Part shown: in pieces, positions 32,650 through 60,903 of the stretch
Numbering within the stretch: position 1 is the stretch's first letter
Layout: each line of letters opens with the position of its first letter
DNA from: Cenococcum geophilum
Lineage: Eukaryota
DNA: 64,000 bases
Reading direction: 5' to 3'
Assembly (NCBI GenBank): GCA_050273025.1
Contig: CP158635.1
Coordinates: 17,050,001 to 17,114,000, forward strand
Notes under the pieces: generated by a model
The model's input: the letters and a program-made list of their open reading frames with translations, nothing else
Told to the model about the DNA's origin: nothing
Databases searched by the model: none
Position numbers and translations under genes: made by a program

Positions 32650-34205
32650 GGCTTTGTGTAGAGCTTCGTGTAGAGCCTCCGTATGCAGGGCTTCGCGCAG
32701 AGCCTCGTGTAGAGCTTCGCGCAGAGCCTCGTGCAGAGCCTCTATATGTAGAGCTTCGTGTAGAGCTTCGTAGAGCTTTATGCAGAGCTTCGTGTAGAGC
32801 TTTATATAGAGCTTTGTGCAGAGCTTCGTGTAGAGCTTCGTGCAGAGCCTCTGTACGTAGAGCTTCGTGTAGAGCTTCGTGCAGAGCCTTGTGTAGAGCT
32901 TCGTGTAGAGCTTCGCGCAGAGCCTCGTGCAGAGCCTCTATATGTAGAGCTTCGTGTAGAGCTTCGTAGAGCTTTATGCAGAGCTTCGTGTAGAGCTTTA
33001 TATAGAGCTTTGTGCAGAGCTTCGTGTAGAGCTTCGTGCAGAGCCTCTGTACGTAGAGCTTCGTGTAGAGCTTCGTGCAGAGCCTTGTGTAGAGCTTCGT
33101 GTAGAGCTTCGTGCAGAGCCTCGTGTAGAGCCTCTATATGCAGAGCTTTGTGTAGAGCCTCGTGTAGAGCCTCGTGCAAAGCTTCGTGTAGAGCTTCGTG
33201 TAGAGCTTCGTGTAGAGCTTTATGTAGAGCTTCGTGCAGAGCTTCGTACAGAGCTTCGTGTAGAGCCTCGTGCAGAGCCTCTGTACGCAGAGCTTTGTAT
33301 AGAGCCTCGTGTAGAGCCTCGTGCAAAGCTTCGTGCAAAGCTTCGTGCAGAGCTTCGTGCAGAGCTTCGTGCAGAGCTTCGTGTAGAGCTTTATGTAGAG
33401 CCTTTGTACGCAGAGCTTCGTGTAGAGCATCGTGCAAAGCTTCGTGTAGAGCTTCGTGTAGAGCTTCGTGTAGAGCTTCGTGTAGAGCTTCGTGTAGAGC
33501 TTCGTGTAGAGCTTCGTACAGAGCCTCGTGCGAGCCTCTGTACGCAGAGCTTCGTGTAGAGCCTCGTGTGGAGCCTTGTGCAAAGCTTCGTGTAGAGCTT
33601 CGTGTAGAGCTTCGTGTAGAGCTTCGTGCAGAGCTTCGTGTAGAGCTTCGTGCAGAGCCTTGTGTAGAGCTTCGTGTAGAGCTTCGTGCAGAGCCTCGTG
33701 TAGAGCCTCTATATGCAGAGCTTTGTGTAGAGCCTCGTGTAGAGCCTCGTGCAAAGCTTCGTGTAGAGCTTCGTGTAGAGCTTTGTGTAGAGCTTCGTGC
33801 AGAGCTTCGTGCAGAGCTTCGTGCAGAGCTTCGTGCAGAGCTTCGTGCAGAGCTTCGTGCAGAGCTTCGTGCAGAGCTTCGTGCAGAGCTTCGTGCAGAG
33901 CTTCGTGCAGAGCTTCGTGCAGAGCTTCGTGCAGAGCTTCGTGTAGAGCCTCGTGCAGAGCTTCGTGTAGAGCCTCGTGCAAAGCCTCTGTACGCAAAGC
34001 TTCGTGTAGAGCCTCGTGTAGAGCCTCATGCAAAGCTTCGTATAGAGCTTCGTGCAGAGCTTCGTGCAGAGCTTCGTGTAGAGCTTCGTGTAGAGCTTCG
34101 TGTAGAGCTTCGTGCAGAGCCTCTGTACGCAGAGCTTTATGTAGAGCCTTGTGTAGAACCTCGTGTAAAGCTTCGTGTAGAGCTTCGTGTGGAGCTTCGT
34201 GCAGC
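32650..34205. repeat. 12-bp minisatellite array (AGAGCTTCGTGY)n with periodic 15-bp variants, ~1.55 kb
   Basis: Visible; explains the (HEAL)n, (CRAS)n and (RAEL)n ORFs. Confidence 0.95.
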
Positions 34206-36716
34206 GCTTTATGCAGTTTTATGGTATTTTTATTACATTTTTATTGCATTTTTGTTGCAGCCAAAAATTAGGGTCTGCTTAAGTCGCTTAAGTCGCAATT
34301 TTAGCAATTTACATAAAGTAGCCTGCAAATCGCTGCAAATCGCCGCAAATTGCTAAAATTGCGACTTAAGCGAGTTAAGCAGACCCCAATTTTCGGCTGC
34401 AATAACGCGCCCAAAAAAAAAAATCCTAATGTACCGTTTTATATAGTAGCTAGTAAAGGGTAGGGAAATCCTTAACGTAGCGCTTAAGATGCTGTAGCAT
34501 ACTCTCTATATATTACTTAAGCTAGAGTAACCTATAACGGTTAAAGTATCTCATAAGATCCTTAAGATCGCTACCTCCCTATAATATCTCTGCGACCTAT
34601 CTAGCAGTTCCCTATAAGGTCTCCGTTATAGAGGGGTTATTACCTATACTAGGCTTTATACCTATCTTGTTATTAAATAGGGGTTAGATCCGATACTCCT
34701 TTGGGTATAAAGCGTATACTATTTTGCCTAAGGCTATATTCTCTAAGATATCTTTTAGGCTTATTAGTAATATACGCCCTTCTAAATCTTTATTATTCCA
34801 CCATTTAAAGGCTCTAGTTTTAAAGCGTATTTTAGGATCTACTTCTACCAGCTAAGGGTATTTAAGGATAAGGTTATAACCTACGAAGTTAGCCGCCTAG
34901 AAGGGTTGCGGGCTGACTACCTTAGTGCGGTTATATATATTAGCCACTAATACTATAAGCTTATAGGCACTGTATAGCTTAATTTAATACTTATCTAGGA
35001 AGCCTATAATAGGTTTCCGCTACCTTTATAATAGGATAAGTTTATACTCTTTTACTAAATTATATTATATAAGATTAATTTTAGCGCTGCTGTCGTATAG
35101 TGCTTAGAACTGTCGTATCTTACCTATAGGGAGTGTTATTTTTAGCTTAACAGCAATATAGAGAGTCTTTCCTTCTGTATCTTGCCCTAGTTACAGCTAG
35201 GAGAGGTCCGCAACTAGGGCTTTTCTTTTTTTAGGTTGTTAGTGCAATTATCACCCAACTTATTCTTCTAATAAGATTTACCTTTAGGGAAATTTCCTTT
35301 TAGCTTCTTAGAGTATTTCTATAAGGGTATTAAACAGGTATCGGGTTGGCCTTAGGAATCTTTCCCATTACTTAGGGCTCCTAACTTTAATCCTTCTAAA
35401 GTTCTCCTTAAGAACGGCTTCTTTAAAGCTTAGGTCTGCCCTATATTACTACTAAAATGCCCACGTTTTTAGTTACCCTTTAGCTTCCTGCTAGAAGAGG
35501 TCTAGTTCCTTACCATATCCTTAGCGTTTAGAACCGCTCGTTTAAAATCCGCATATACAGTAATCCACAGTAGGGCTCCTACGCGCTTTATTTTATCACG
35601 AATTACTAGCTTAATTTTAGCCCAGATAAATTTAATCTTCTCCTTTTTACGGATACTGCCGTCCTTATTTTTAAAGGGCTCTAAATCCATCTATTAAGTA
35701 CGAGTTTCTATAAAGTTTATAAACTAGTGGAAGTCTTAACGGTCCAGCTGCGTACCATTCTAGAATTGTTTTATATTGTTATATTATATAATATATAGAT
35801 CTTAGGTCCAACCCTTTAGGAAGGTCTATAGCTATAGCCATATTATAATTTGCTCTTTATTAAGTTAATTAAGCGCGATCTAGTTTAGTAATCGGTCTTT
35901 AATCTTACTAATAATCTAGCGTGTACGCTCTTTAGTATTATCTCGTATTATTAGCATCTTAAAAAAGTTATTTACCTCGCGAACCTAATTGTCTAGCTAT
36001 TGGGTATTAGGTCTATAACGAAGTTCTAAACTATCGGAGGCCTTAGCTAGTCGGTCTATATCCTTTTTCCGTTTATTACATAAGTGCCTCTCTAAGTCTT
36101 TTACACCTCCTTAGGTAGGTACTAAGTAGCCCCTAAAAAGCCCTTAGCCTTAACTAGGTTATAAAAAAATTTACCTAGCTTAGATTAAACCTTACTAGAT
36201 ATAGATTTGCCCTTAAAAGGTTCTAATATATTTATTAGTGGCTTCCTCCTATATAGCTTCCAAGAGCCTTATAACAGCTTCCCGATATCCATCTTAAAGG
36301 AGATTAGTATAGGGCTCTTAACCTTCTAAACTTAGGCCTAAGGAAGCTCCTACTATAGAGGTAGTATTAGCACTAGTAGCTAGTGCGGGTTTCCCAATAA
36401 GCCTTAGGTCTTAAGTTAGTGTTTAGGTTTAGTTTTCTAAAGGGGTAGGCCCGTTTAGCTCGTAAGTAGTCTATATACCGCCACTATACTAATTATAGGC
36501 CGGTGGTCTTCCGGAAGGGTTCTGGTTAGGTCCCTAGTTAAATGCGTTAGTATATTTCTCTAATATTTCTAGCTTAGGGGAAGATCTTAGGGTTACCTCT
36601 AGCGCTTAATCTTCTAATTAGCCTAAGTAGGGTTAAAGGGGTTCCGGTTACTTTCTGGTAGCGTTATAACCGTTATAGAGGGTATCTACGTTTTCCTTAG
36701 TGGTAACTATAGGTGT

Positions 36717-48585: not shown

Positions 48586-49209
48586 GAATCTATAGAAGAA
48601 CCACTAGGGATACTGTCTAAAGAGGACATTATTTAAGAATAAGTAGTAGCAATATAAGAAGAGGTCTTAGGGATTTAAAAAGACCCTTAGGGATAGAAGG
48701 GGAGTATTTAGTCTAGCACTAGAGATATATAATAGAGTTAATAGTATAAAGAGGAGTAAAAAGACAGCCTATAAAGAATTAAAAATTTTAAGAAATTATA
48801 AAGTACCTATAGGAATACTACCCATTTATTATATATAGGGATTCTAGTAGTATACTACCTTTATATAAATTGCTACCAAAGCTTAAAATAAAGGCATCCC
48901 TAAAGTATAAAGTTAATTCCTAATAATAGGGCATTCTGGAGGCACCTAAAAGGCATTATATAATAATAAATTCAATTTACCGCCCGTCTTAGTCCCCCTA
49001 GTGGGTTCACGCAGGCTAATACCTTCTATAGGAAAAACTCTAACTTAGAGAAAACCCCACCTTAGGCCGCGCTAGAGAGATGGTAGTGTTCTGACATCGG
49101 AGCGCCGGCGGCTCGCCTTCTACCTGCCTTTAAGTCTGCATATTAAGCCAACTGGCCGTGCTTTACAGATAATCTCACTCTACCCCCTTCTTTCCTTATT
49201 TTTTTACCC

Positions 49210-52200
49210 TTATTCTTTTACCAGTCCTCTAGGCTTTAAAAGGGCTAGTATCTACTTATATTCTTTATATCTATTACCTTTACTACCTAAAACTAGGGTA
49301 AAATACCTAACTATACCAGCTATTTTGCTACTATTTAGGCGCTTTCTTTATTATTTAAAACACCCTAAAGGCGTTTAGAGGCGCATTTTGCTATAAAGTC
49401 CGCCCTTTAGTAGTGTGGACACTAAAATAGTATATAGTAGACTGTCTGCTTTATCTAGCTATATTTATACCGCAAGAGAACCGCCGGTACACCGACGGAT
49501 ATAAGCTATATATTAAGCCCTATTACCTCTATATAAAGGAGAAATAGTGCTATAGCCTCTGCTTTTGTTAGGCCTTTATATAATAGGATTATAGGTTTCC
49601 CCTATAGGGTTTTCTACATAATTTCTGTGCGGTCTTTAGCCTTTGCCTACCACTATTATCGCCATTCTAAATCTGCCCATTTCGCGATAAAGGTAGTTGC
49701 CTGCCTTTAGTGCTAGTAACCTTCTATATAATAGCGGCGCTCCGCCTATACTCTACTGGTGTTCCACTAGCTACGCTTATAGGGGTTTATTATAGCTTCC
49801 CGCTCTATATAGTCCTTCTAGTACGTAAGAAAGCCTTATATCTTATTTTTATAGTCCTTTATACGTTCCCTAAGCGCTTCTAATAATACTAGTAGCCGTT
49901 TTATTTTTTACTGGCGCTTTACTAATATATTCTAGATACCGTTAAGTACCTCTACTAATTCCTTTTCTACTTTATTAGAGGCCATCTTAGCGGCTCTTTA
50001 AAGGGCTATTATTTTAATATAGAGTTAGATTAGGGGAATAGCCGCTTCCTTCTCTATTGCAGCTATTAGTGTTTACTAGTATGCCCCTATAACCCTGCGG
50101 AGACACTAGTTTTGGACTTTCTATAGTAGTTTAAGCAAGCTTTTTACTAGCGTTCCGCCGTCATTCTGTACTCCCTATACTTAGGCGCTATATAGCATCG
50201 CTGGTTGGACGGTAGCTATATATAGGAGGCGTAAGCGGCGCATTAATAGGCCCTATATAGACGCGGTGATCCTTAATATCGCTTTAAAGGCTACTAAGCC
50301 CTTACTTATGGCCTTTTTAACCTATTCTTTTTATTGGAGCTTAGGGTCTACCTAAATCCCTAGGACTTATATGCTGGTTTTTTAGGGGGCTGTCTTGTAG
50401 CTAGTAATACACACAGTAGACGTAAGGTTTGTGGTGGCGTAGCGCTATCGCCTTATAAAGTGTATAAGCTAGTACTTCTTAGGGGCGAACGCCGCCCTAT
50501 ATCGATTTGCTTATACAGCGTAGTAGTTATAGGTGGCCTTTAATCGTCGACAGTTCTCTACCGCGGAGTCTCCCTAGGTAATAAGGTTTGTATCGTCTAT
50601 AAAGCTAAACCCTAGCGTGCTACTATTAGGGCGCTAGAATTCCTCTAATAGCTCTAATATAAAAAAGAGGAATAAGATTAGTAATAAGGGTAACCCTTAG
50701 GGGATGCCTATCTATATCTAAATCTAGTTGCTCTTATATTCTATAAACTTAATATAGGTTTTATGTACTATTAGGAAGCTTTATACGAAGTTTATAAGCC
50801 ACTTTAAAAAGCCTTTTCTTTTTAAAATATAGAGGAGCCTTTTATAGGAGATGTTATTAAATACCCCTGCTAAGTCTAGGCTTAGCATTAATACTATACA
50901 CCTATGGCGCGTTCGCTACGCCGTTTATACGTAAAAGCTAAGCAGTCCTATTACTAATAGTGTAAATTATTTACGCTTTACTCTCATCTAGTTCTAAAGG
51001 AGTAGCCTATACTCCTCCGCAGCCTTAGATATAATGTTAGCTATATACTTTTTTAGGACTTTTACTAGCGTGTTTTTAAGGGTAATTAGTCTATAGCTGC
51101 CTAGGAGAGAGTAATCTTTCTTTCCTTTTTTATATAATACTATAGTTATAGATTCTTTAAGGCTTTCTAGTATTATTCCGCTGGCGAAGTAATAACTAGC
51201 TACTTCTGCTAAATCTTTTATAATAACTAGGGTAACCACTTTAAGGACCTTGTTTAGTATACTATCTAGCCCTAAGGCTTTTTTATTTAGAAGACTTCTA
51301 ATAAGCTTACCGATTTCTTCTGTTAAGATAGTAGGGCTAATATTAAGCACATTTTGTTCCCTTATTGTCTCCATATTACTAAGGTCTGCTATTCTAGTTT
51401 TAGAAAAGAACTTAGCTATAAGGATATTAGCCTTTATAATATTATTATCTATTAAGGGATCCTTAGTAGACCTCCTAAGGTCTAGTAAATAGGGGTCCGC
51501 CTTTACTACGCTTGCTTTTCTACTCTATTTTAATAAAGTCTAAAGTCCCTTATTATATGGTTTTAACTAGTCTTTAATAAGTTTATAAATAAAGTGTCTC
51601 TAGTTATTATAACTAACTCTCCTAGTCTCTTTTTGCAGTTAATTATTTAATACTAAATATCTTTAGTGGTCCTTAGGGTTGTTATAAGCTTAGAGCTATT
51701 ATCGCACCTATTAGGCGCCGGCGTGGAGCTATATAGCCTATAGCGACCATTCTTAATAGGCCTGCTGGCTAGGTTGTGCTTATAGGCAGTGTTCTTTAAG
51801 TACTTACTTAATCCCTTCCTAAAGGGCTTAAAAGGGGTCTTTAAATATAGTCCAGTTAAGCTCCTATATGCTTTAGAGAAAGCCCTATAAGTTTAGCTTT
51901 TTAAGGGCAAGGCGCTGGCGTTCCGCTAGCGGATAGCCGGCGTTATTAATTTGGATATAAATCGGTATATGGTCTTTTATAAGGGCCTATTCCTTAACTA
52001 TACTATAAAAGTTAACTTTTCTATATAGATCTGGTGATATAAACGTAAGGTCTATTACACTCTCCTATTGCCCTCTTTTCTATATAGGCTCTCCTTTTAG
52101 TATAGTGAGTACTAGGCTTTTAGCATTGGTTTTGGCTAGAAGACGTTTCGCCTGCTCTTTACTAGCTATATGCTTTTCACCCTATATTAGGTAGTAGGCG

Positions 52201-52616
52201 TTAAAGTTACCTAAGAGTATAATTTCTCCCTTGGCTTCCTTAATAGCTATTTTAATCTTAGGCCATGCCCTAATCTAAGGGCCATCTTCGCGCGGGTTAT
52301 AAATATTAATAATTGTAGCCTCTAGCCCCTTTAGGCGTACCTAGAGGGCTATAGTAAAGGGGCTATACTGTCTGCGCTTCTAATGCGCGGTGTTAATATT
52401 TTAGCTAATTATAAAGCAGACCTTTATTATAGGGAGAGCGTTATATATAAGTGTAAATCCCCTAGGGCAGTATATTAATTTAGTATATCTATTATATACC
52501 AGCTTCTAAATTGTAAGGACCTAGTAGTCCGCCGGCGTAACGCTATTAAAGAAGGGGCGATATACCCCTTAGTTTGCATTTCCGTAGTTATACTAGATAA
52601 TTATATACTTACTTAT
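49210..52616 (-). pseudogene. LINE ORF2: APE endonuclease, reverse transcriptase and C-terminal Cys/His motif
   Basis: IIQYN..N start (~52600), LLG(D)FNA (~52210), KALGLDSI...YRLITL.NTL.KVL (ORF 50994-51374), GIP(Q)G.PL, FIDDTNL (~50595). Confidence 0.9.
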
Positions 52617-52619
52617 TTA

Positions 52620-54105
52620 AAGTAGGTATAGGCTTATCTATGTTTGTATCCTATTCCTCGTTATTTTTGCTATTAACTATTATTACTCTATTGGCGCAAA
52701 GCCGGAGCCTTAATTATAATCTATCTCTACTTACTATTTTAATAAAAGATAGTTTACCTAGTCCCCATTTAAGTAGTTGTTTTTAGGTCCCTAGGTAAAA
52801 CATTTCCCGTCCTCTTTTCTTATTAGTGCTAATTATAAGGTTTCTTAGTATTAAGGGTTGGTATATTATTTCTATAGCTTTTTATATACGGAGCAACTGC
52901 GTTAAGAAGACTATCTTCTTTATTTAGATACCTTTAAGGTAGCTTTAAAAGGTCCTATACTCTTTTCTTTACTATACTTTATGGGCTTTACTATAGTTAA
53001 TATAGGATACCCTTTTCTTAGGGTAATCTGTGGTGTTATATAGTCCTATACATTACCCACATTTTATTTACTTTCCGCATGCGCTTTATATATACCCCTA
53101 TTAATTATAATAGTAGCATTACTTTATAATCACGCTATTCTTAAATAGCCTAGTCTTAAAAAGCTAGGATTTAATAACTATCCTACTTTTTACAATCTTT
53201 TGCTAAATTGCTTAGGTTAGGACGCTAATTATAATTATTTCCCTAGTCTTCTTAGGTTCTCTCTAGGCGCTGCTAAAGTTTACCTAGCATTTCGCCTATG
53301 CTTTAGGGTCGTGTAGCTATCGGATCTAGCTAATAGCTATTCTAGGCACGAGGCGCTTCGTGGCTTTATAAATGGATTAAGTTAATTCTAAATTATTTAT
53401 ATCCCTTTTACTATTAATTAGAGTCTTAAGCAGGACTCCTAGTACTTTTAGGAGATAATTTTTCCTTAGTATCCTAAGTCCTAGCGTATTTAGCCCGTTT
53501 AGGATTTAGTCCTTTATTATTTAGGAGGGGATATAGACATCTACGTCCCTACTATTAAGTGTGCATACGGCGTATGCGCTTAGTATTATTCTCTAAATAG
53601 TCTTAAGAAGCTCCCCTAGTTTGTGGCCTTAGGGCTCCTTAAGCTAGACGCGTATACTCGCTCTTTATAGTGCCGCGACTATATTTACCGTGCGGGCCGC
53701 CTGCGCAGCGACGGCTGCCTAGGTTTGGACCTGTACTAAGGAAACTCCTAGGCCTAGGGGTCCTCCTTTACGCGTTTCTTTTTAGATTTTCTTAATACTA
53801 GCTTTAATTTGGTTAAGCTAGGCCTTAGTCTCTTATTCTTGGGTTATCTAGGGGACTAGACGCGTTAAGAGGGCTTTAATATACTATATTGCCTTTTAAA
53901 TAAAGGCAAGTATCTAGTGCCGTAGAGTTTCTTCCTCCTCTTTTATAAGATTGTTTTTAATTTATTTAAGTATTTCCTTTAGTTTTTACTATTGCTAGCA
54001 GCTGTCCTTTTCGCGTTATTACCCACCTAGTTCGTAGTTCGGCTCCCGCGCGTTATAACTCTTACAACTTTAGTAGGGAGCCTACGCCCCTCCGTCGTCC
54101 CCCAT
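52620..54105 (-). pseudogene. LINE ORF1 (gag-like), RIP-inactivated; limits approximate
   Basis: Lies upstream of ORF2; TWAAVAAQ-like motif at ~53700-53725. Confidence 0.6.
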
Positions 54106-54671
54106 ACTCTAAATAGGGGGCGGCGTAGTTTTATAGGGTTTCTCAGTGCGGGGAATAGGATTCTAATATTGGGTTGCTTTATTAAGTAGTTTTTAGGCTA
54201 GTTTCGCTGCTGTTACGGCTTTAAGTCTCTAATTAAAGGCACTATATAAAGCTATTCTATAAAAGAAGGGAAGAACTAGATAATAACTTAAATACTAGTA
54301 GCAGTAATAGGAGCCTCCTTATTTATCTTAACGTTATCCTTAATAGTATTATTAGGACTTTTATCCCTAGAAGCATTAGCACTTCTATTAATATTCTTCT
54401 TAGTATAACGGGAGCTAGAAGGACTAGCATAGGTAGGAGACTAGTAAAGAGAATATTTATTTTAATATTTATTGCTATTTTTAGTATTCTTAGGCTCTAA
54501 ATTAGTATAGTTCCTAAATATATTACTAGAGAAACTTACCTAGCTAGAAAAGCCTACGTAAGGGTACGAATATTATTATTTATAAGGGTAAGCTGCTTGT
54601 ATATACGCTCTTAGACACTATATATCTAAAATCATTACGTCTCTATAGTAGTGGAAACCCTTATTAAATTA

Positions 54672-57600
54672 GGTCGCCACTATTTATACACCCCCTAAAT
54701 AATATACGTACACCCCCTAATTGATACGCATCCCTTCGTGTAGCAATTGACACTTTTTGTATTAGGCGCTTTAGGCGCTTCTGCTTGGGTTAGCATGCTA
54801 CAGGCATCCTAGCTAGCGTGATTTTATTTACAAGCCCTACCAAAACACCTTAATATTGCGATGCCGACGAAATACTACCTAAGGCCACTACTACAAAAAC
54901 ATTAAATATATTTTTTGAGGAAGTTGGGTAAGAAGTCGTGATATATATAACGTTATGGCTATACGTTCCTGTTCTTCCTCCATTAACCAGCTGCTAATTA
55001 TATAGGAAAAGCCTTTATTAGAGTCCTCCCCTAAATCCTTACTACCTATACGCTTTATACGCGTTCTTATTAATAAGGATAAACTAGTAGAGGATCAGCT
55101 TAAGGTTATAAAGGAGGACGTGTTGTATACGTCAAATAAAATAGATTAGATGCTACAGGTGATTAAATAGTTTAATTAGCAATTGTTTAGTATAAAGGCG
55201 CGTTTAAAGGCAGTAGAGAAGGGCTTAAGGATAGACGCTGTAGTAAAGCTTAGTTAGCTTTAGAGTCTCAATATTAGGCGTAAGGAAGTAAAGGATTAAA
55301 AATAGTTACCTAATTATTGCCTACTAAATAAAAGTCGTTAAAGTACTATAGGTATAGAGGAAGCCTACAAACCTCGCATTTGTATACTGTTCGCCTTATC
55401 TTTACTATAAGCTTCCTTGTGTACTTCCATCTACACATCTAATACATTAGTAAGCTCTTATAGCCTTCCTTCTTTATATAGCTCTTAATATAGCGGTAAG
55501 TTTGCGTTTTATACTGTTGAATTATAAGTAGTAGGGTTTTGGCAGTAATATAAGTGCTTTTTTAATTTGTTCTAGTATTTTTATAACTAGGCCCAATACT
55601 AGGTTTATACTAACTAGGTTTATATTACCTATAATTTAGTAATATTAAACAAAGAAGACGCTTAGTATCTTCCTCATTTATGCCTATCTGCTAACTGCCC
55701 ATAATAACAAGGTTTTATGCCAATTATACGCGGAAGCGGCGATGGGTTTAAAGGAAGGGCTTGCTTAATGTTTAGAAGATCTTCTTGCTAATAATATAGG
55801 CGTTAATTATAGCCATATTAAGCGCCTAGAAGAATAAGGGTATCTAGGTGCGCATAGTGGTAATCTGGGTAGTATAGTAGCTTTAAAGTTAATTATAGAT
55901 ATTAACACCGCCTATCTAATTATTATAGTCAATAGAGAGCCTAGGAAGCGTTAACTTCTTAATTAAATTATTGCCCTAAATATTAGCTACTAGCTTCTTA
56001 AGAAAGGAATTATATACTCGCGGCTGGCGCTAATTAACTTCATTAACATCCTTATCGCCGCATAAGTAAGCTATCGTTAAAAACTATACTAAATTCTTAT
56101 CCTGCTACATAATTAAAAGCACTAAATCAGCTGCGCTAACGACTATTTCTATAATAAAATTAAACGGCAGCCTTACCTTCCTTTTATTGGCCCTTTTATG
56201 CACCTTTAAATAGTCCTTTAAGTTTAATTAAACCGTGCCAGCTGCAGCAATTCTAAGTCGTCAAAGCACCTAAAGTAATGGAATATTTGTAAAGTAGTTA
56301 TCTAAAAATAGGCAGAATTAACGGGCCTGGAGAGAAAGCTGCTAGGTAAGGTAGAGGACGCACTTAGAGGTCTTTAAGAGGACGATATCTTGGTAATCTG
56401 TTTAAGAAGGAAGCCTAAAAAAGTAACCAGATAAGGTAAATATAAAGCTATAGTAATATCCGTATTAATAAAGACTTATTATTTTAAAGCCTTTAGGTAC
56501 TAGCTTACTAGGCAATTTAATTATAGCCATAAATCGTCTAGTAAACCTTACTATTATTTTATTAAAACTAACTATAGATTTAGGTATAACGTACTTCTTA
56601 AATACCTTACCTAGAGGAGTTGTTAACGGCTTAATTTTCTCAAAGATCTGGCGTTTAACGCCTTTTAGTAGAGGCGGTGATATATAAAAAAAGCGCTTAA
56701 GTTACTCCCATCTTTTTTAGCCCATAAATAAGCTAATTGGGTGCTAAGAATATTCAAGATCTGTTGCCCAAAAGTCTTATACTTAAGGAGCTTTAAAGAC
56801 GCCTATATAGATAATAAGTCTTACCTAAATCATCAACTCGCCAGCAGAGGTCTCCTTCTATACCTATAATCGTCTACCAGCGTGTCGTCCTAATTAGTAA
56901 TATCCACCGGCGTTTTAGAAGGCTGCATAAAGGTTTGTGTTAATAGCAAGCTTCTTAAATACACTAATGCTAAAGAATAGTAGAAACACTTAAATCGGTA
57001 GGTCCTATTTAGATTTACACCTACCAGACGTTATACCAATCTAATCTGCTAGTATATAGTAAGCAGAGCGCTTAGTATCCTCATTTTAAGCAGAAAGATT
57101 AACAGATTTAACGCCCGCGCTAAAGCCGTAAATAGGCTCACCAACACGCCAAGCAGCGAATATTAGCTCCTTAGGAAGGTTAACAACTTTAAGATTTAGT
57201 TCAGAAACGGCAGCCATAGGCTCCCATGTAGTAGGAACGGTAGGAAGGTCTATTCTTACAACTTCTTCAGCTAATAGCTCTGGTAATTCAGTCTCATCCA
57301 CCTCATCTACCTTATCCTTGGCGGTCTCACCATAGGCCTCAAAAATAGCTCCTACTTCGTCCTCAATATCCTCCACCTAGGTACTCGGCCGAGCCTCTTA
57401 AATATCCTTACTTAGCGCCGCTACCTGCTGCACAAGTACTGGAGCCACCAAAGCCTCTAAAGGCTGTACAACTACTACCGCCAAGCTATCGTGTATATAC
57501 TGCGTTGCTTAAAAGGATTGTAAATAAGACTCCTATACTTGAGGTGCTTTTAGAGGCTTTGTAGGCCTTAGAGCTTTTAAAGCTTTTAGGGCCGTAGGAG

Positions 57601-58612
57601 GCTTCGGAGCTAAAGACGCACGACGTTTTCTAGGCGGCATAAGAACGATATCTCGCTAAGGGTTTAATCAAATAGGCAGCAATAATATTAAAGCTTTTTA
57701 ATCAACTATACTACTAAATATTCTATACAGGCTCCTAGCCACGTCGCTGCTGCTCACCGCAATATTCGAGCGTCAGAGGCGCATGAGGCGCCTATACCCC
57801 TACCGCCGAGCAATCGCACTGACCAAGGCTTCAACACTAAGCTATATACGGTATAGAGCCTTAGATTGGCTTAAGAGGCGTGCATATACGAAAAGTGCAA
57901 GAAATCGTTGCCCAAGAATGGGATACACCCCCCAATTGATACGCATACACCCCCTACCTTATTTAGTTTAGATGCTTCCTCATCAAGTTAGATGCTTCCT
58001 TATTAAGTTAGAATATCACGTGCGTTTGATTTGTTTGCGCCTACATCACGAAAATCAAAGTGCGAGTCCATAGTATTTCGCTCAAATGCTGAGGGCTCTC
58101 TACGAATTAATCTGTCGACGCGATTGGCAATTGTAGAGCTAGTTATAGAGTTAATTGGCCGACCGCGGCGACGCTCTACAATTGCAGGCTCTTAAATGCG
58201 AAGCAGAGGTGTTGATTTAGGTCCCACCGGGCGCAGGCGTGGGCGCGGGCGTGGGCGCAGGCGTGGGCGCGAAGCAGAGGTAGCAGCACCTAAATCAGTT
58301 TGCGCGACGCCTCACAAAGCACTGCGCAATGAATTAATTAACTCAGGCGCGATCCAAATTTAGACTCTACTACTTATGCTATAACTAAAATCAAGACTTA
58401 ATCGTGAGGTTGCAGTTATAAAACTTACATAGCGCGCACTTTGATTTTCGCGATGCACGCGCAAACAAATCAAACGCACGTGATATTCTAACTTAATGAG
58501 GAAGCATCTAACTTAATAAGGAAGCATCTAAACCAAATAAGGTAGGGGGTGTATGCGTATTAATTGGGGGGTGTACGTGTATCATTTAGGGGGTGTATAA
58601 ATAGTGGCGACC
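54672..58612 (-). mobile_element. DNA transposon with piggyBac-like transposase
   Basis: TIRs of about 58 bp starting GGTCGCCACTATTTATACACCCCC. Flanking duplication TTAAATTA at 54664-54671 and 58613-58620 (or TTA only). Confidence 0.9.
55310..57640 (-). pseudogene. piggyBac-like DDE transposase (~777 codons), RIP-inactivated
   Basis: MPPRKRR start, ELMI(W)V(G)LIIY(M)G, DFW, ISLFM..KRWE.LKRFF, and a C-terminal RTVYKCEVC.LPL(C)..(C)F..F(H) Cys-rich domain. Includes ORF 57086-57376 in frame. Confidence 0.8.
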
Positions 58613-58620
58613 TTAAATTA

Positions 58621-59004
58621 AAGAGCCTATGTAAGGGTAGATACCTTTTATCCCCGTCTATCGCTATTTAAATATAGGCGGAAATCCTAAATAGCGTAAT
58701 AGAGCTTATAAGTCTTATATATATAGATAGCGGGGATCTAATATAATTAGTAAAATTTAGAATAAGACAGAATGGAAAATACTAGAACGTAGGTCTTTCT
58801 CCTACTACAGCAATAAAAATACTTAGATTTGTTTTTACTAGAATAAGGCATCTTATAGGTATAAAATAGGTTTAGTATAAGTACGTAAACGCAATAACGG
58901 TAGCACTTTAGAGAGATTACTATAGGAGTAACAGAGGTGGTCTAGGGTGGCACCGAAATAACACCGCTGCCGGTTAAAGGACGCGCAGTACGACTATAAG
59001 ATAT
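58621..59004 (-). pseudogene. 5' part of an antisense Cys-cluster gene in the Gypsy E 3' region (intron 58738-58782); continues at ~54290-54663
   Basis: KC.R.C...(C)...K(C)..C......(C)V, then a 45-nt GT...TACTAAT...TAG intron, then IP. Several Cys are inferred from RIP-type TGY>TAY changes. Confidence 0.55.
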
Positions 59005-59391
59005 TATAAGAGAATACTATAAAAAGTTAGTATTATTAATAGAGATAAATAGGTATCTTATTACTTATAAATATATTATAAAAAGAGAATAGAGCAGCTA
59101 TAAAAGGATAGCTAGAGATATAGAAGCTAAAAGCTAAGATATAGTAAAAACAGTCTACTAAAAGACGAGACGAATGGTGTTATTAATAAAAAGACGTATA
59201 AGAGACAACAGCTTATAAACTAGAAGAAATTAAAATTAAGACGTTATTATTAGAACCTATTTTAGGTAAATAGGGATAGTAGCTTATAGATACATTGCAT
59301 AGGATAACCTCTAGATTAACTTATAACAAACTCTTATAATAAGAAAGGTAAATCCTATCCAATTATTATTATTATTATTTTAGTTCTATTA

Positions 59392-60329
59392 ATAATAGAT
59401 TTAATTTACCGTCCGACCTAGTCCCCCTAATAGGTCCACACAGACTAATTCCTATAGGAAAAACCTCCTTATCTGAGAAAAACCCCATTTTTTTAGGTAT
59501 ATAAAAAACCTCTAGGGGAAATATAAGAGGTAATACTTCTAGATAGCATCCGTACTACATTAATAAGAGGAAAAACACCGTTAGGTTACTGCTTTAAGAC
59601 TCTATAAAAGTGTCTAAAATACCTATCTTACCCCGTCTACTATTTAAACCATTTTTGCCACGTCTATATATTGCCTATATAAAGTTATATACCTATCCCT
59701 AGCTCCTTTTCCAAGTCTCCTATAAATATCTCCTGATAATGATAACGCTTTTGCGTTCCGCCCGGGCCTATATACTAAGGTCTCTTATCCATTCCTTTAT
59801 TAAAGGGTTTCTACAACGGGGTGTATATGACTTAGTATCGCTTTTACCCTAGGGCCCAAACCTAGGCCCTTATACCTATTCGTGAGGTATAGGAGGACAC
59901 TCTAGTATTTAGGGGGGACCAGTCCCTATTAACTAGATACCTAGGTTGCCGGGTAATATTAAAATAGGGGGCCTCTGCTACGCTTAGGGCGCGGATTGTA
60001 TGCATATATGTGCGGGTGCTATATAGTGTTTATAGTATTTATAGGAGGGAGGGGGTACGCCGGAGGATAATACTTGTCGATTTAAATGACTGAACGTATA
60101 TATTAGAGACGTGGTAGCTATGTTCAAACTTTTGCTGGGGCTCACCCCCTAGCGAAAAAAATTTCACACCACTACCACCACGTCGCTGCGCAGGCGCTGC
60201 GTAGCCGTACACACGTCTCTGCGTTTGCTCTGGTAGTCTATTAACACAATCCAAATAGAACATTAATAGTAGCTGCTAGGTTCCTGGGCTCCACCACGTG
60301 GAGGTGCAAAGGCCGATTTCATCGAGCCC
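59392..60329 (-). mobile_element. ~0.94-kb non-autonomous non-LTR (SINE/SIDE-like) element
   Basis: 22-23-bp TSD TTATTATTATTTTAGTTCTATT(A) at 59369-59391 and 60330-60352. The 3' ~95 nt (59392-59488) resemble the LINE 3' end (48963-49060). Confidence 0.85.
60215..60329 (-). ncRNA. Putative HDV-like self-cleaving ribozyme
   Basis: Minus strand: P1 GGGCUC/GAGCCC, P2 CUUUGC/GCAGAG, P3 ACC/GGU, L3 UCCACGU, P1.1 GG, long P4 hairpin, J4/2 CAAAC. G1 is the first base of the element. Confidence 0.75.
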
Positions 60330-60903
60330 TTATTATTATTTTAGTTCTATTATAAAGGCATTATAAGGAGCTATAGTGGAAGAAAAGCGGAAGAAAAGTG
60401 GAAGAGCTAAAAATAAAGTAAGGTTCTATGCTTATAAAGAACTAGCTATAAGCCGTATTATAGAGTACCTTTCTAGTAAGAATCTTCCCTAGTAGTTTTA
60501 GCTAGAACTCTATAAAAGCTTAGTAGAGGCGAAGTCTTAAAGGACTAAAACCCTTAAAGGGGAGGCAATTGTAACAGAATCCCCTAGAAGGTATATATTA
60601 GATAAGACAGTAGGAGGTTTTATTTATATCCTATCTATATTCTATCTACGTCCTAAGAGATACGGTTAGATAAATAAGGGGCGAAGGGTTTTACTAGCGT
60701 TTTAAAAGGATTATATAGGGAGCTAGATCTCCTCTAAAGAAGAGCTAGCGATTAGTCTCTAAATAAAAGAGGTTAGAAAGCATTTATCCTTTATATGTAA
60801 AGATCGTTCTACCTTAACTTATCTTCTACTTACCTGTAACTCTTATTCTACACTATTAATTAGATAATTATATATTCCGGTTAAACTGGCCTCTTATAAT
60901 AGG

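Follow-up and report, generated by a model that had tools for sequence, protein, structure and literature searches.

What is the 938-bp insert that lies on the minus strand at positions 59392-60329 of a 64,000-nt stretch of the Cenococcum geophilum genome (assembly GCA_050273025.1, contig CP158635.1, positions 17,050,001 to 17,114,000; hereafter the window), and does it begin with a self-cleaving RNA? A preliminary description, made from the letters of the window, had taken it for a short interspersed nuclear element (SINE) that starts with a ribozyme like that of hepatitis delta virus (HDV) and ends with the 3' tail of a long interspersed nuclear element (LINE). Our results indicate that the insert is almost certainly a non-autonomous retroelement of the type that lacks long terminal repeats (non-LTR) with a LINE tail, that its family very probably has, exactly at the RNA 5' end, a head with an HDV-like fold, and that self-cleavage is likely to be functional in intact copies.

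The insert is enclosed by a perfect direct repeat of 23 nt, the two copies of which are spaced 961 nt apart, and no open reading frame (ORF) is conserved across eight fuller relatives, where the longest ATG-initiated ORFs (33-93 aa) are found in inconsistent places. The proposed non-coding insert between target-site duplications (TSDs) was thus recovered. Its last ~96-100 nt are 80% identical to positions 49059-48963 (minus strand) at the 3' end of a LINE in the same window (E 1e-16), in agreement with the likeness of ~95 nt noticed before, and in a five-way alignment the SINE-like tails and the LINE tail finish at a common terminus, ...GGTAAATTRAATYTATTATT. The element therefore combines the features of the SIDE/NARTc type of retroelement: it is ORF-less, it is flanked by TSDs and its 3' end is common with a LINE. 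The 64-kb window holds one copy of it, the sole further match being that of the tail to the LINE 3' end, and the surroundings are rich in repeats and AT. Joints in DNA contigs at 59282>60333 and 59284>60330 were considered as clean empty sites and rejected, since ~85-90 nt beyond the element and its TSD are skipped as well. The parts of the insert are as follows.

59392-60329, minus strand: non-autonomous non-LTR retroelement of 938 bp (SIDE/SINE-like), a copy altered by repeat-induced point mutation (RIP), with a 23-nt TSD; high-copy in DNA runs.
60330-60352, no strand: TSD copy on the 5' side of the element, TTATTATTATTTTAGTTCTATTA, 100% identical to 59369-59391.
59369-59391, no strand: TSD copy on the 3' side of the element, a perfect 23-nt match with 60330-60352.
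59392-59487, minus strand: LINE-like 3' tail with the terminal letters ...GGUAAAUUAAAUCUAUUAUU; its identity to positions 49059-48963, the LINE 3' end, is 80%.

Copies of the element are numerous. In each of three DNA runs, 1,311-1,941 contig pieces were found over it, and in a soil-metagenome run (X8) the depth, which is in the hundreds or thousands, dropped to single digits at either end of the element. A metagenome scan with one 24-nt IUPAC pattern over RNA positions 35-58 yielded at least 122 loci and 122 distinct heads, to which all class counts given below refer. Because the pattern contains the 3' strands of the helices P1 and P3 as well as P1.1, the conservation of these parts in the fetched copies is forced. 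No match to the head pattern was found in viral contigs. In the public runs, differing copies mostly carry G for the A of the window and C for its T, which implies that the window copy has suffered C>T and G>A changes. Such changes account for 627 of the 1011 differences from the consensus in 100 aligned heads, and CpA sites in these heads are mutated in 21.6% of cases versus 5.5-11% in other contexts, which is the signature of RIP. The window head differs from that of an unmutated relative (L113) at 8 of 113 positions; every one of these changes is C>T or G>A, and one is G45>A in P1.1. The window copy is probably an inactive, RIP-mutated relic. At plus-strand position 60285, where the window has T, other copies have C (161 of 161 RNA reads, most of the depth in runs X1 and X5 and about a third in X8). 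Taken together, the copies form a high-copy family of non-coding non-LTR retroelements of ~830-1010 bp in a RIP-competent fungus; the assignment of the family to a fungus is based on the labels of the public runs (fungus, root and soil metagenomes) and on the RIP signature.

Most of the listed heads begin at the same nucleotide. We refer to these as class A (73 of 122); they start with GGGCUY, and their upstream flanks are unrelated to one another and AT-rich. Exact TSDs of 12-16 nt lie flush with the first G (G1) in 12 of the 27 class A copies that are long enough, while the other 15 have no convincing exact TSD, and the TSD-bearing full-length relatives from the metagenome loci measure 829-1011 bp. 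The class A copies thus share one 5' terminus, and the TSD-fixed 5' end coincides with the predicted cleavage site in 12 copies besides that of the window, as the preliminary description had anticipated for both points. Bodies diverge past nucleotide ~130-150, and the head is the most conserved part across subfamilies. Four loci (L011, L012, L034 and L056) carry a different 5' module that ends in a T-run and is fused at about position 29, so that the 5' strands of P1, P2 and P3 are missing. In three others (L004, L111 and L120) a common upstream sequence (...GGCCTGGATAAGCAGGCAYGTCGAACTCTACTATATAACTA...) is joined to heads truncated at about positions 5, 7 and 27; these joins may be template-switch chimeras, or one site in another repeat may have been hit by insertion more than once.

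Read on the minus strand, the insert begins with GGGCUCGAUGAAAUCGGCCUUUGCACCUCCACGUGGUGGAGCCCAGGAAC; the arms of the P4 hairpin read CUAUUAA and UUAAUAG, and P4 is followed by ...AGCAAACGCAGAG. The letters and coordinates of the head, including the C of CAAAC at plus-strand position 60227, are as first described. The predicted module and its parts are listed below in RNA order, P1 3' and P3 strands included; class B denotes a leader-bearing form that is introduced further on, and drz-agam-1 is an HDV-like ribozyme family of Anopheles gambiae (RF01787).

60217-60329, minus strand: predicted HDV-like ribozyme module, RNA index 1-113, from the consensus of 100 heads; predicted cleavage 5' of the G at 60329.
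60323-60329, minus strand: P1 5' strand, GGGCUCG (consensus GGGCUCC), pairs with 60286-60292; 0 non-RIP changes at positions 1-6 in 67 class A heads.
60306-60311, minus strand: P2 5' strand, CUUUGC (consensus CUCUGC), partner GCAGAG (60217-60222); pairing in 96.8% of cells over 95 distinct heads.
60293-60305, minus strand: P3-L3-P3' core, ACC UCCACGU GGU (consensus L3 UCCACGC); P3 100% paired; letter for letter with the drz-agam-1 consensus ACCUCCuCGuGGU.
60286-60292, minus strand: P1 3' strand, GGAGCCC; inside the search pattern, conservation forced.
60284-60285, minus strand: P1.1 positions, AG (consensus GG); C30-G45 pair in 48 of 95 distinct heads.
60230-60279, minus strand: P4, a long imperfect hairpin; pair 67-86 changes from A-U to G-C in 13 heads.
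60223-60227, minus strand: J4/2, CAAAC (CGAAC in class B), predicted catalytic C at 60227.
60217-60222, minus strand: P2 3' strand, GCAGAG, pairs with 60306-60311.

The consensus head reads, in order, GGGCUCC (P1), AUGAAAUCGGC (J1/2, 11 nt), CUCUGC (P2), ACC (P3), UCCACGC (L3), GGU (P3'), GGAGCCC (P1'), GG (P1.1), GAAC, P4 (51-100), AG, CAAAC (J4/2) and GCAGAG (P2'). It fits the nested double pseudoknot without a bulge, with 7 bp in P1, 6 bp in P2 and GG immediately after P1. Reverting the RIP changes does not weaken the pairing of P1, P2 and P3 but improves the fold: U21>C turns the U.G pair of P2 into C-G, L3 then ends in C, and A45>G makes the nucleotide first drawn as a bulged A the first G of P1.1, so that the bulge is gone. 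A catalytic C that opens J4/2 and a conserved C and G in L3 are hallmarks of HDV-like ribozymes. J4/2 starts with C in the main form (CAAAC), in class B (CGAAC) and in a divergent relative described below (CCAAC), and the L3 sequence UCCACGC aligns to UCCuCGu of drz-agam-1.

We determined the background of such folds with two descriptors. The loose one demands helices P1 (6-7 bp), P2 (5-8 bp), P3 (3 bp) and P1.1 (2 bp), the joining and loop segments J1/2 (0-40 nt), L3 (7-8 nt) and J3/1 (0-1 nt), a P4 region (8-90 nt) and a J4/2 starting with C, and the strict one adds U[CU]C in L3 and C[AG]A in J4/2. The loose descriptor matched 192 of 128,000 sites in the window and 794 of 614,334 sites in the loci (~1.3-1.5 per 1000). 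The strict descriptor had no match among the 128,000 sites of the window and 2 among the 614,334 of the loci, one of them a register-shifted real head, which gives a combined 2 of 742,334. Among the class A copies with enough sequence, 18 of 62 passed the strict and 21 of 62 the loose descriptor, and none of 28 class B copies passed. The HDV-like pseudoknot proposed earlier for this locus thus stands for the family, the consensus of which passes both descriptors, but not for the window copy itself, which, with its RIP-type changes, fails even the loose one.

Over the 95 distinct heads, 93.4% of the cells at the proposed pairs are standard, compared with 30-51% when the partners are slid; such a value is expected of any consensus-derived structure, and the family is shallow. 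Where the non-RIP changes fall says more than this percentage. In the 67 class A heads, 36 non-RIP changes fall at the start of J1/2 (positions 7-9) and 118 in P4, while the 5' strands of P1 and P3 have 0 each, L3 has 1, P2 has 2 and J4/2 has 1. Relatives were also sought by BLAST and with a covariance model of 23 nested pairs built from the head alignment. A divergent relative, L077 (1751-1842), was found with 50.6 bits by our own covariance model. In a manual pairing its P1 is kept through three two-sided changes (G1-C44>A-U, U5-A40>C-G and C6-G39>U-A), and the P1 covariation comes from this one relative; the alignment of P1 by the model itself differs and includes one non-standard pair. L077 shows no change in P2 or P3, its P4 is replaced by an unrelated, shorter hairpin, and its J4/2 reads CCAAC. 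A TSD of 12-15 nt sets its 5' end 0-3 nt from the predicted cleavage site.

Searches with the curated models of Rfam, which are narrow for HDV-like ribozymes and ignore pseudoknots, gave one match to an unmutated head. This was drz-agam-1, at 16.9 bits and E 0.28 versus a gathering score of 37 (a 144-nt stretch against 4,227 families). The core of drz-agam-1, ACCUCCnCGnGGU, and its first G-C pair are identical to those of the family head, and the resemblance is specific. No match to any HDV family of Rfam was obtained on the window region (E up to 10) or on eight whole loci (E up to 1), and the L077 head gave a weak match to HDV-F-prausnitzii (11.1 bits, E 6 versus a gathering score of 44).

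A second form of the family retains sequence upstream of the head. Class B comprises 29 of the listed heads, all preceded by a conserved leader of ~215 nt, and the related locus L092 is built likewise, while the leader was found in 0 of 73 class A copies. The 29 class B copies and L092, 30 leader-bearing copies in total, all have CGACUC, or a form of it altered by RIP, at the site of GGGCUC, which breaks pairs 1 and 3 of P1, with the P1 3' strand unchanged. Fixed differences separate class A from class B at G1/G3 versus C1/A3, at U28/C32 versus C/U in L3 and at A104 versus G in J4/2. L092 has the class A type of L3, P2 and J4/2 and yet carries the leader and CGACUC, so the association of the leader with a broken P1 appears in two lineages. 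Class B copies have TSDs of their own (11 of 12 copies), with 1-6 extra purines between the TSD and the leader start GAACAC, whereas class A junctions are flush. If the head is a ribozyme, retention of the leader is the expected outcome of a missing P1, because no cleavage would take place; the association could also be simple linkage of adjacent sequence.

The leader itself (GAACACCAAAAUCGAGAUCC..., for example L021:2752-2966, and in 29 other loci) contains no tRNA, has no match in Rfam and folds unremarkably (z -1.28). Among the sequences compared, it occurs only upstream of class B heads (and that of L092) and in one split copy in L045 (1803-2003 and 2937-2966), where ~930 nt interrupt it and ~10 nt (leader positions 195-205) are present on both sides; this looks like an insertion into a class B copy. 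Two loci (L002 and L024) have leaderless class B-type heads with CGACUCC, the starts of which lie at -3 and 0 from the predicted cleavage site, representing either chance 5' truncations or residual cleavage in a P1-weakened form. It is conceivable, though we would put it forward only tentatively, that loss of P1 turned a processed element dependent on read-through into a longer one that carries its leader, perhaps with a promoter, and passes it on to each further copy, and that the two forms of the family amount to a natural genetic test and illustrate the origin of a new family with a promoter of its own. The purines at class B junctions would then fit a capped 5' end, and the flush class A junctions a 5'-OH end.

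With respect to transcription, stranded RNA-seq of a related organism contained sense reads at a depth of 273-984 over head positions ~30-200, falling to 28 in the last bin and to 0 beyond the element. None of the reads was at least 99% identical to the window copy, 79% continue into unlike sequence, and most are less than 90% alike. Relatives of the element are thus transcribed in sense orientation. Six loci searched with ARAGORN had 0 tRNA genes, no Rfam small-RNA match to a tRNA, 5S or 7SL head was obtained in the window or in eight loci, and runs of T5-T6 are located at about 170, 760, 825, 850 and 870 in five of five full-length copies. The lack of a head of the RNA polymerase III (pol III) type together with these internal T-runs argues against a pol III SINE, and pol III transcription is unlikely. 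The label of SINE, in its strict sense, was therefore not confirmed; the element resembles an R2 SIDE or NARTc more than it does a true SINE.

The family has three modules, namely a 113-nt head, a variable body and a tail of ~100 nt common with a LINE that has an apurinic endonuclease (APE) and a reverse transcriptase (RT) domain. We propose that transcription would arise by read-through or from a promoter that overlaps the head or lies outside it. The head would then cleave 5' of G1 and so set the RNA 5' end, and the LINE protein would recognize the common tail and, through target-primed reverse transcription, insert copies at AT-rich targets and generate the duplications of 12-23 bp. In this scheme we infer catalysis, read-through transcription and the identity of the mobilizing LINE.

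Several observations weigh against a ribozyme at this position. The family is shallow, its variation is mostly due to RIP, and P2 and P3 show no informative covariation. The manual pairing of P1 in L077 needs a bulged U, and the second P1.1 pair of this relative is broken (C.A). None of the Rfam HDV-like families reached its gathering score. The nested minimum free energy (MFE) of the window head is not better than that of shuffled sequences (z +0.83), alternative hairpins (G1-U20 and CUCCAC/GUGGAG) compete, and the consensus from RNAalifold is weak (-13 kcal/mol) and does not recover P1. For the window copy alone, the fold as first drawn requires a bulged A that is a G-to-A mutation. The strict terms of the descriptor were picked after the sequence had been seen, partly from features of the HDV and CPEB3 ribozymes. 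HDV itself has G.U as its first pair, and the G-C found here differs from it, although the drz-agam-1 consensus likewise has G-C. Class B retains the rest of the module despite its broken P1, which could point to another role of the module. Finally, the 5' ends of RNA-seq reads do not pile up at 60329; end pile-ups are confined to 60284 and 60316 and are probably alignment clipping at divergent positions. As the reads come from relatives that are mostly less than 90% alike, they speak neither for nor against cleavage.

One alternative is that the head is an internal promoter or a structured 5' untranslated region, with G1 as the transcription start and the HDV-like fold as a coincidence. A fixed start site would equally predict a common and exact 5' end, a promoter could be the most conserved part of elements with bodies that diverge after nucleotide ~130-150, and the retention of module parts without an intact P1 in class B and class C families would be understandable. 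It would also agree with the lack of an Rfam family at threshold, the unremarkable MFE and RNA-seq data without a cleavage signature. We nevertheless regard this explanation as unlikely, since at a strict background of 2 in 742,334 the fold begins exactly at the terminus defined by the TSDs, and L3, P3 and P1.1 are identical to the consensus of an experimentally named HDV-like family. Moreover, the variation avoids the ribozyme core, P1 is compensated and P4 swapped in L077, and leader retention and a broken P1 go together in 30 of 30 copies. A milder form of the proposal, in which promoter and ribozyme are combined as in Pr77 of the trypanosomatid element L1Tc, is no rival to catalysis.

It is considerably less probable that the leader-bearing class B, of ~1150 bp, is the full-length form and that class A copies are 5'-truncated at a hot spot, for instance where the RT stalls at a stable structure. 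In favour of this view, 11 of 12 class B copies have TSDs of their own at 1-6 nt before the leader, and 5'-truncated copies do exist, with starts at -56, -27, -26, -3 and 0. However, 73 copies share one start nucleotide, while each of the other truncation points is represented by one copy or a few, G1 is the common start of several class A subfamilies that differ in their bodies, and the fixed differences between the classes imply that class A has master copies of its own. That an ordinary retroelement 5' end can by chance be drawn as an HDV fold is hardly credible: the loose descriptor does match ~1.3-1.5 per 1000 sites and the window copy alone requires a bulge, but de-RIPping removes every irregularity and adds none, and the strict background, the identity to drz-agam-1, the placement of variation, L077 and the leader contrast count here as they do against a promoter.

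A self-cleaving head, which we consider the probable explanation, would have precedents outside the fungi. Insects (R2 and its SIDEs) and trypanosomatids (L1Tc/NARTc) have non-LTR elements, with short parasites of these, for which an HDV-like ribozyme at the 5' end is documented. Like the fungal family as proposed here, R2 SIDEs are short, non-coding non-LTR elements with a 5' HDV-like ribozyme, the 3' end of a LINE, mobilization in trans and TSDs, and hybrid SIDEs combine a ribozyme and a tail from different LINEs. They reside in rDNA and are cut from 28S co-transcripts, and cleavage has been demonstrated for them, while the fungal head is known from its sequence. The fungal family is instead dispersed in AT-rich repeat DNA, high-copy and equipped with a body of ~700 nt unrelated to the LINE. 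Template jumps by which small RNAs are added at the 5' end are also described in the R2 SIDE paper. R2 ribozymes are described as having a P1 of 6-7 bp, a P2 of at least 5 bp, a variable P4 and very few fixed nucleotides (PMC3774820).

In the trypanosomatid pairs L1Tc/NARTc and ingi/RIME, an HDV-like ribozyme at +1 is reported to set the RNA 5' end (Pr77/L1TcRz; PMC3185411, PMC3383444, PMC4035085). As in the fungus, L1Tc/NARTc consist of a dispersed LINE and a non-autonomous partner with the ribozyme, predicted in the fungal case, at nucleotide +1. The L1Tc module, as described there, comprises 77 nt with 1-2 bp in P1.1 and also serves as an internal promoter, in contrast to the fungal head of 113 nt. 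With drz-agam-1 the fungal head shares the core ACC-UCCnCGn-GGU, the GG after P1 and the G-C first pair, but its J1/2 and P4 are longer, with the result that the model of drz-agam-1 misplaces P2. Classical SINEs with tRNA, 5S, 7SL or snRNA heads have the same order of head, body and LINE tail and are likewise mobilized in trans; the family differs in lacking a head of the pol III type.

In fungi, 230 representatives of a variant of the HDV class in 26 species and 11 canonical examples have been reported, two of which were shown to cleave (Li and Breaker, 2017; PMC5640933). According to the descriptions in that paper, P2 and P3 of the variants are separated by an additional nucleotide, P4 contains an E-loop and C-G is found at the cleavage site; in the present head the P2/P3 junction is of zero length, P4 is an ordinary hairpin and the pair is G-C, and since the two were compared by description, overlap is possible. 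The word 'retrotransposon' does not occur in the main text of the paper, and no link to retrotransposons is stated there. Some fungal HDV ribozymes, reported to have 'widely variable gene associations', might be explained by the family described here. No published HDV-like ribozyme on a fungal SINE or LINE was found in our literature search, which makes a weak case for its absence from print.

The family thus appears to be a new, fungal and dispersed member of the ribozyme-headed SIDE/NARTc group, a design known from flies and trypanosomes. If the head cleaves, the family links the 5' ribozymes of non-LTR elements with the HDV-class ribozymes of fungi, and would represent a dispersed parasite of an APE-type LINE that is high-copy and headed by a ribozyme, in a fungus with RIP. 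Unmutated copies are numerous, and the leader-retaining sister family with its mutant P1 is a natural control. RIP can hide such RNAs from the inspection of single copies and from Rfam.

The likely source family of the tail is represented in the window by a degraded LINE.

48961-54663, minus strand: degraded APE+RT LINE, likely tail source family; APE at ~51957-52316, RT at ~50355-51122; 5' limit uncertain.

Read-through translation of this LINE, which had first been called Tad1-like, with X at stops gave matches to two Pfam domains only, Exo_endo_phos_2 (E 3.3e-7) and RVT_1 (E 3.5e-10), and two of the loci (L004 and L041) contain 3' parts of the same LINE. A homology search found no protein homologues of the RT fragment, and homologues of the flanks of the LINE end were absent among the sequences compared. 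No second head was found with the covariance model in the window or beside LINE pieces (346,775 bases, the LINE 5' limit being uncertain). No Pfam domains were detected within 3 kb downstream of five heads with divergent bodies, and the sequence downstream of the head in L005 had no match elsewhere among the sequences compared.

Directly past the LINE 3' end, the 12 nt TATAATGCCTTT at 48949-48960 recur at 60354-60365, just upstream of the upstream TSD copy of the SINE-like element (minus strand). If they are the TSD of the LINE itself, the LINE would extend from 60353 to 48961, with ~6.5 kb remaining without the SINE-like element and a piggyBac-like insert, and the SINE-like element would lie only 24 nt inside the LINE 5' end; the recurrence of a 12-mer in AT-rich DNA could also be due to chance. 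At this possible LINE 5' end (60353 downstream, minus strand, with the SINE-like element removed) several registers match the loose HDV descriptor, with UUUACCU as L3 and CAAUG as J4/2. The candidate fold was rejected as not significant, because its P1 consists of low-complexity (UAA)n/(UUA)n, the sequence is RIP-degraded and the loose background is ~1.3 per 1000 sites.

Two further features of the window were recorded. The only long open frame is an ORF of 530 aa at 32764-34353 (plus strand) in an island of 53-56% GC; it has a sub-threshold match to DUF1997, and its homologues are weak, low-complexity-like and uninformative. Between the LINE and the SINE-like element, at 54664-58621, lies a stop-degraded piggyBac-like DNA transposon with a DDE_Tnp_1_7 domain (E 1.3e-28) at ~56998-55796 on the minus strand, the inverted repeats of which (~69 nt, 54664-54731 and 58553-58621) are 91% identical.

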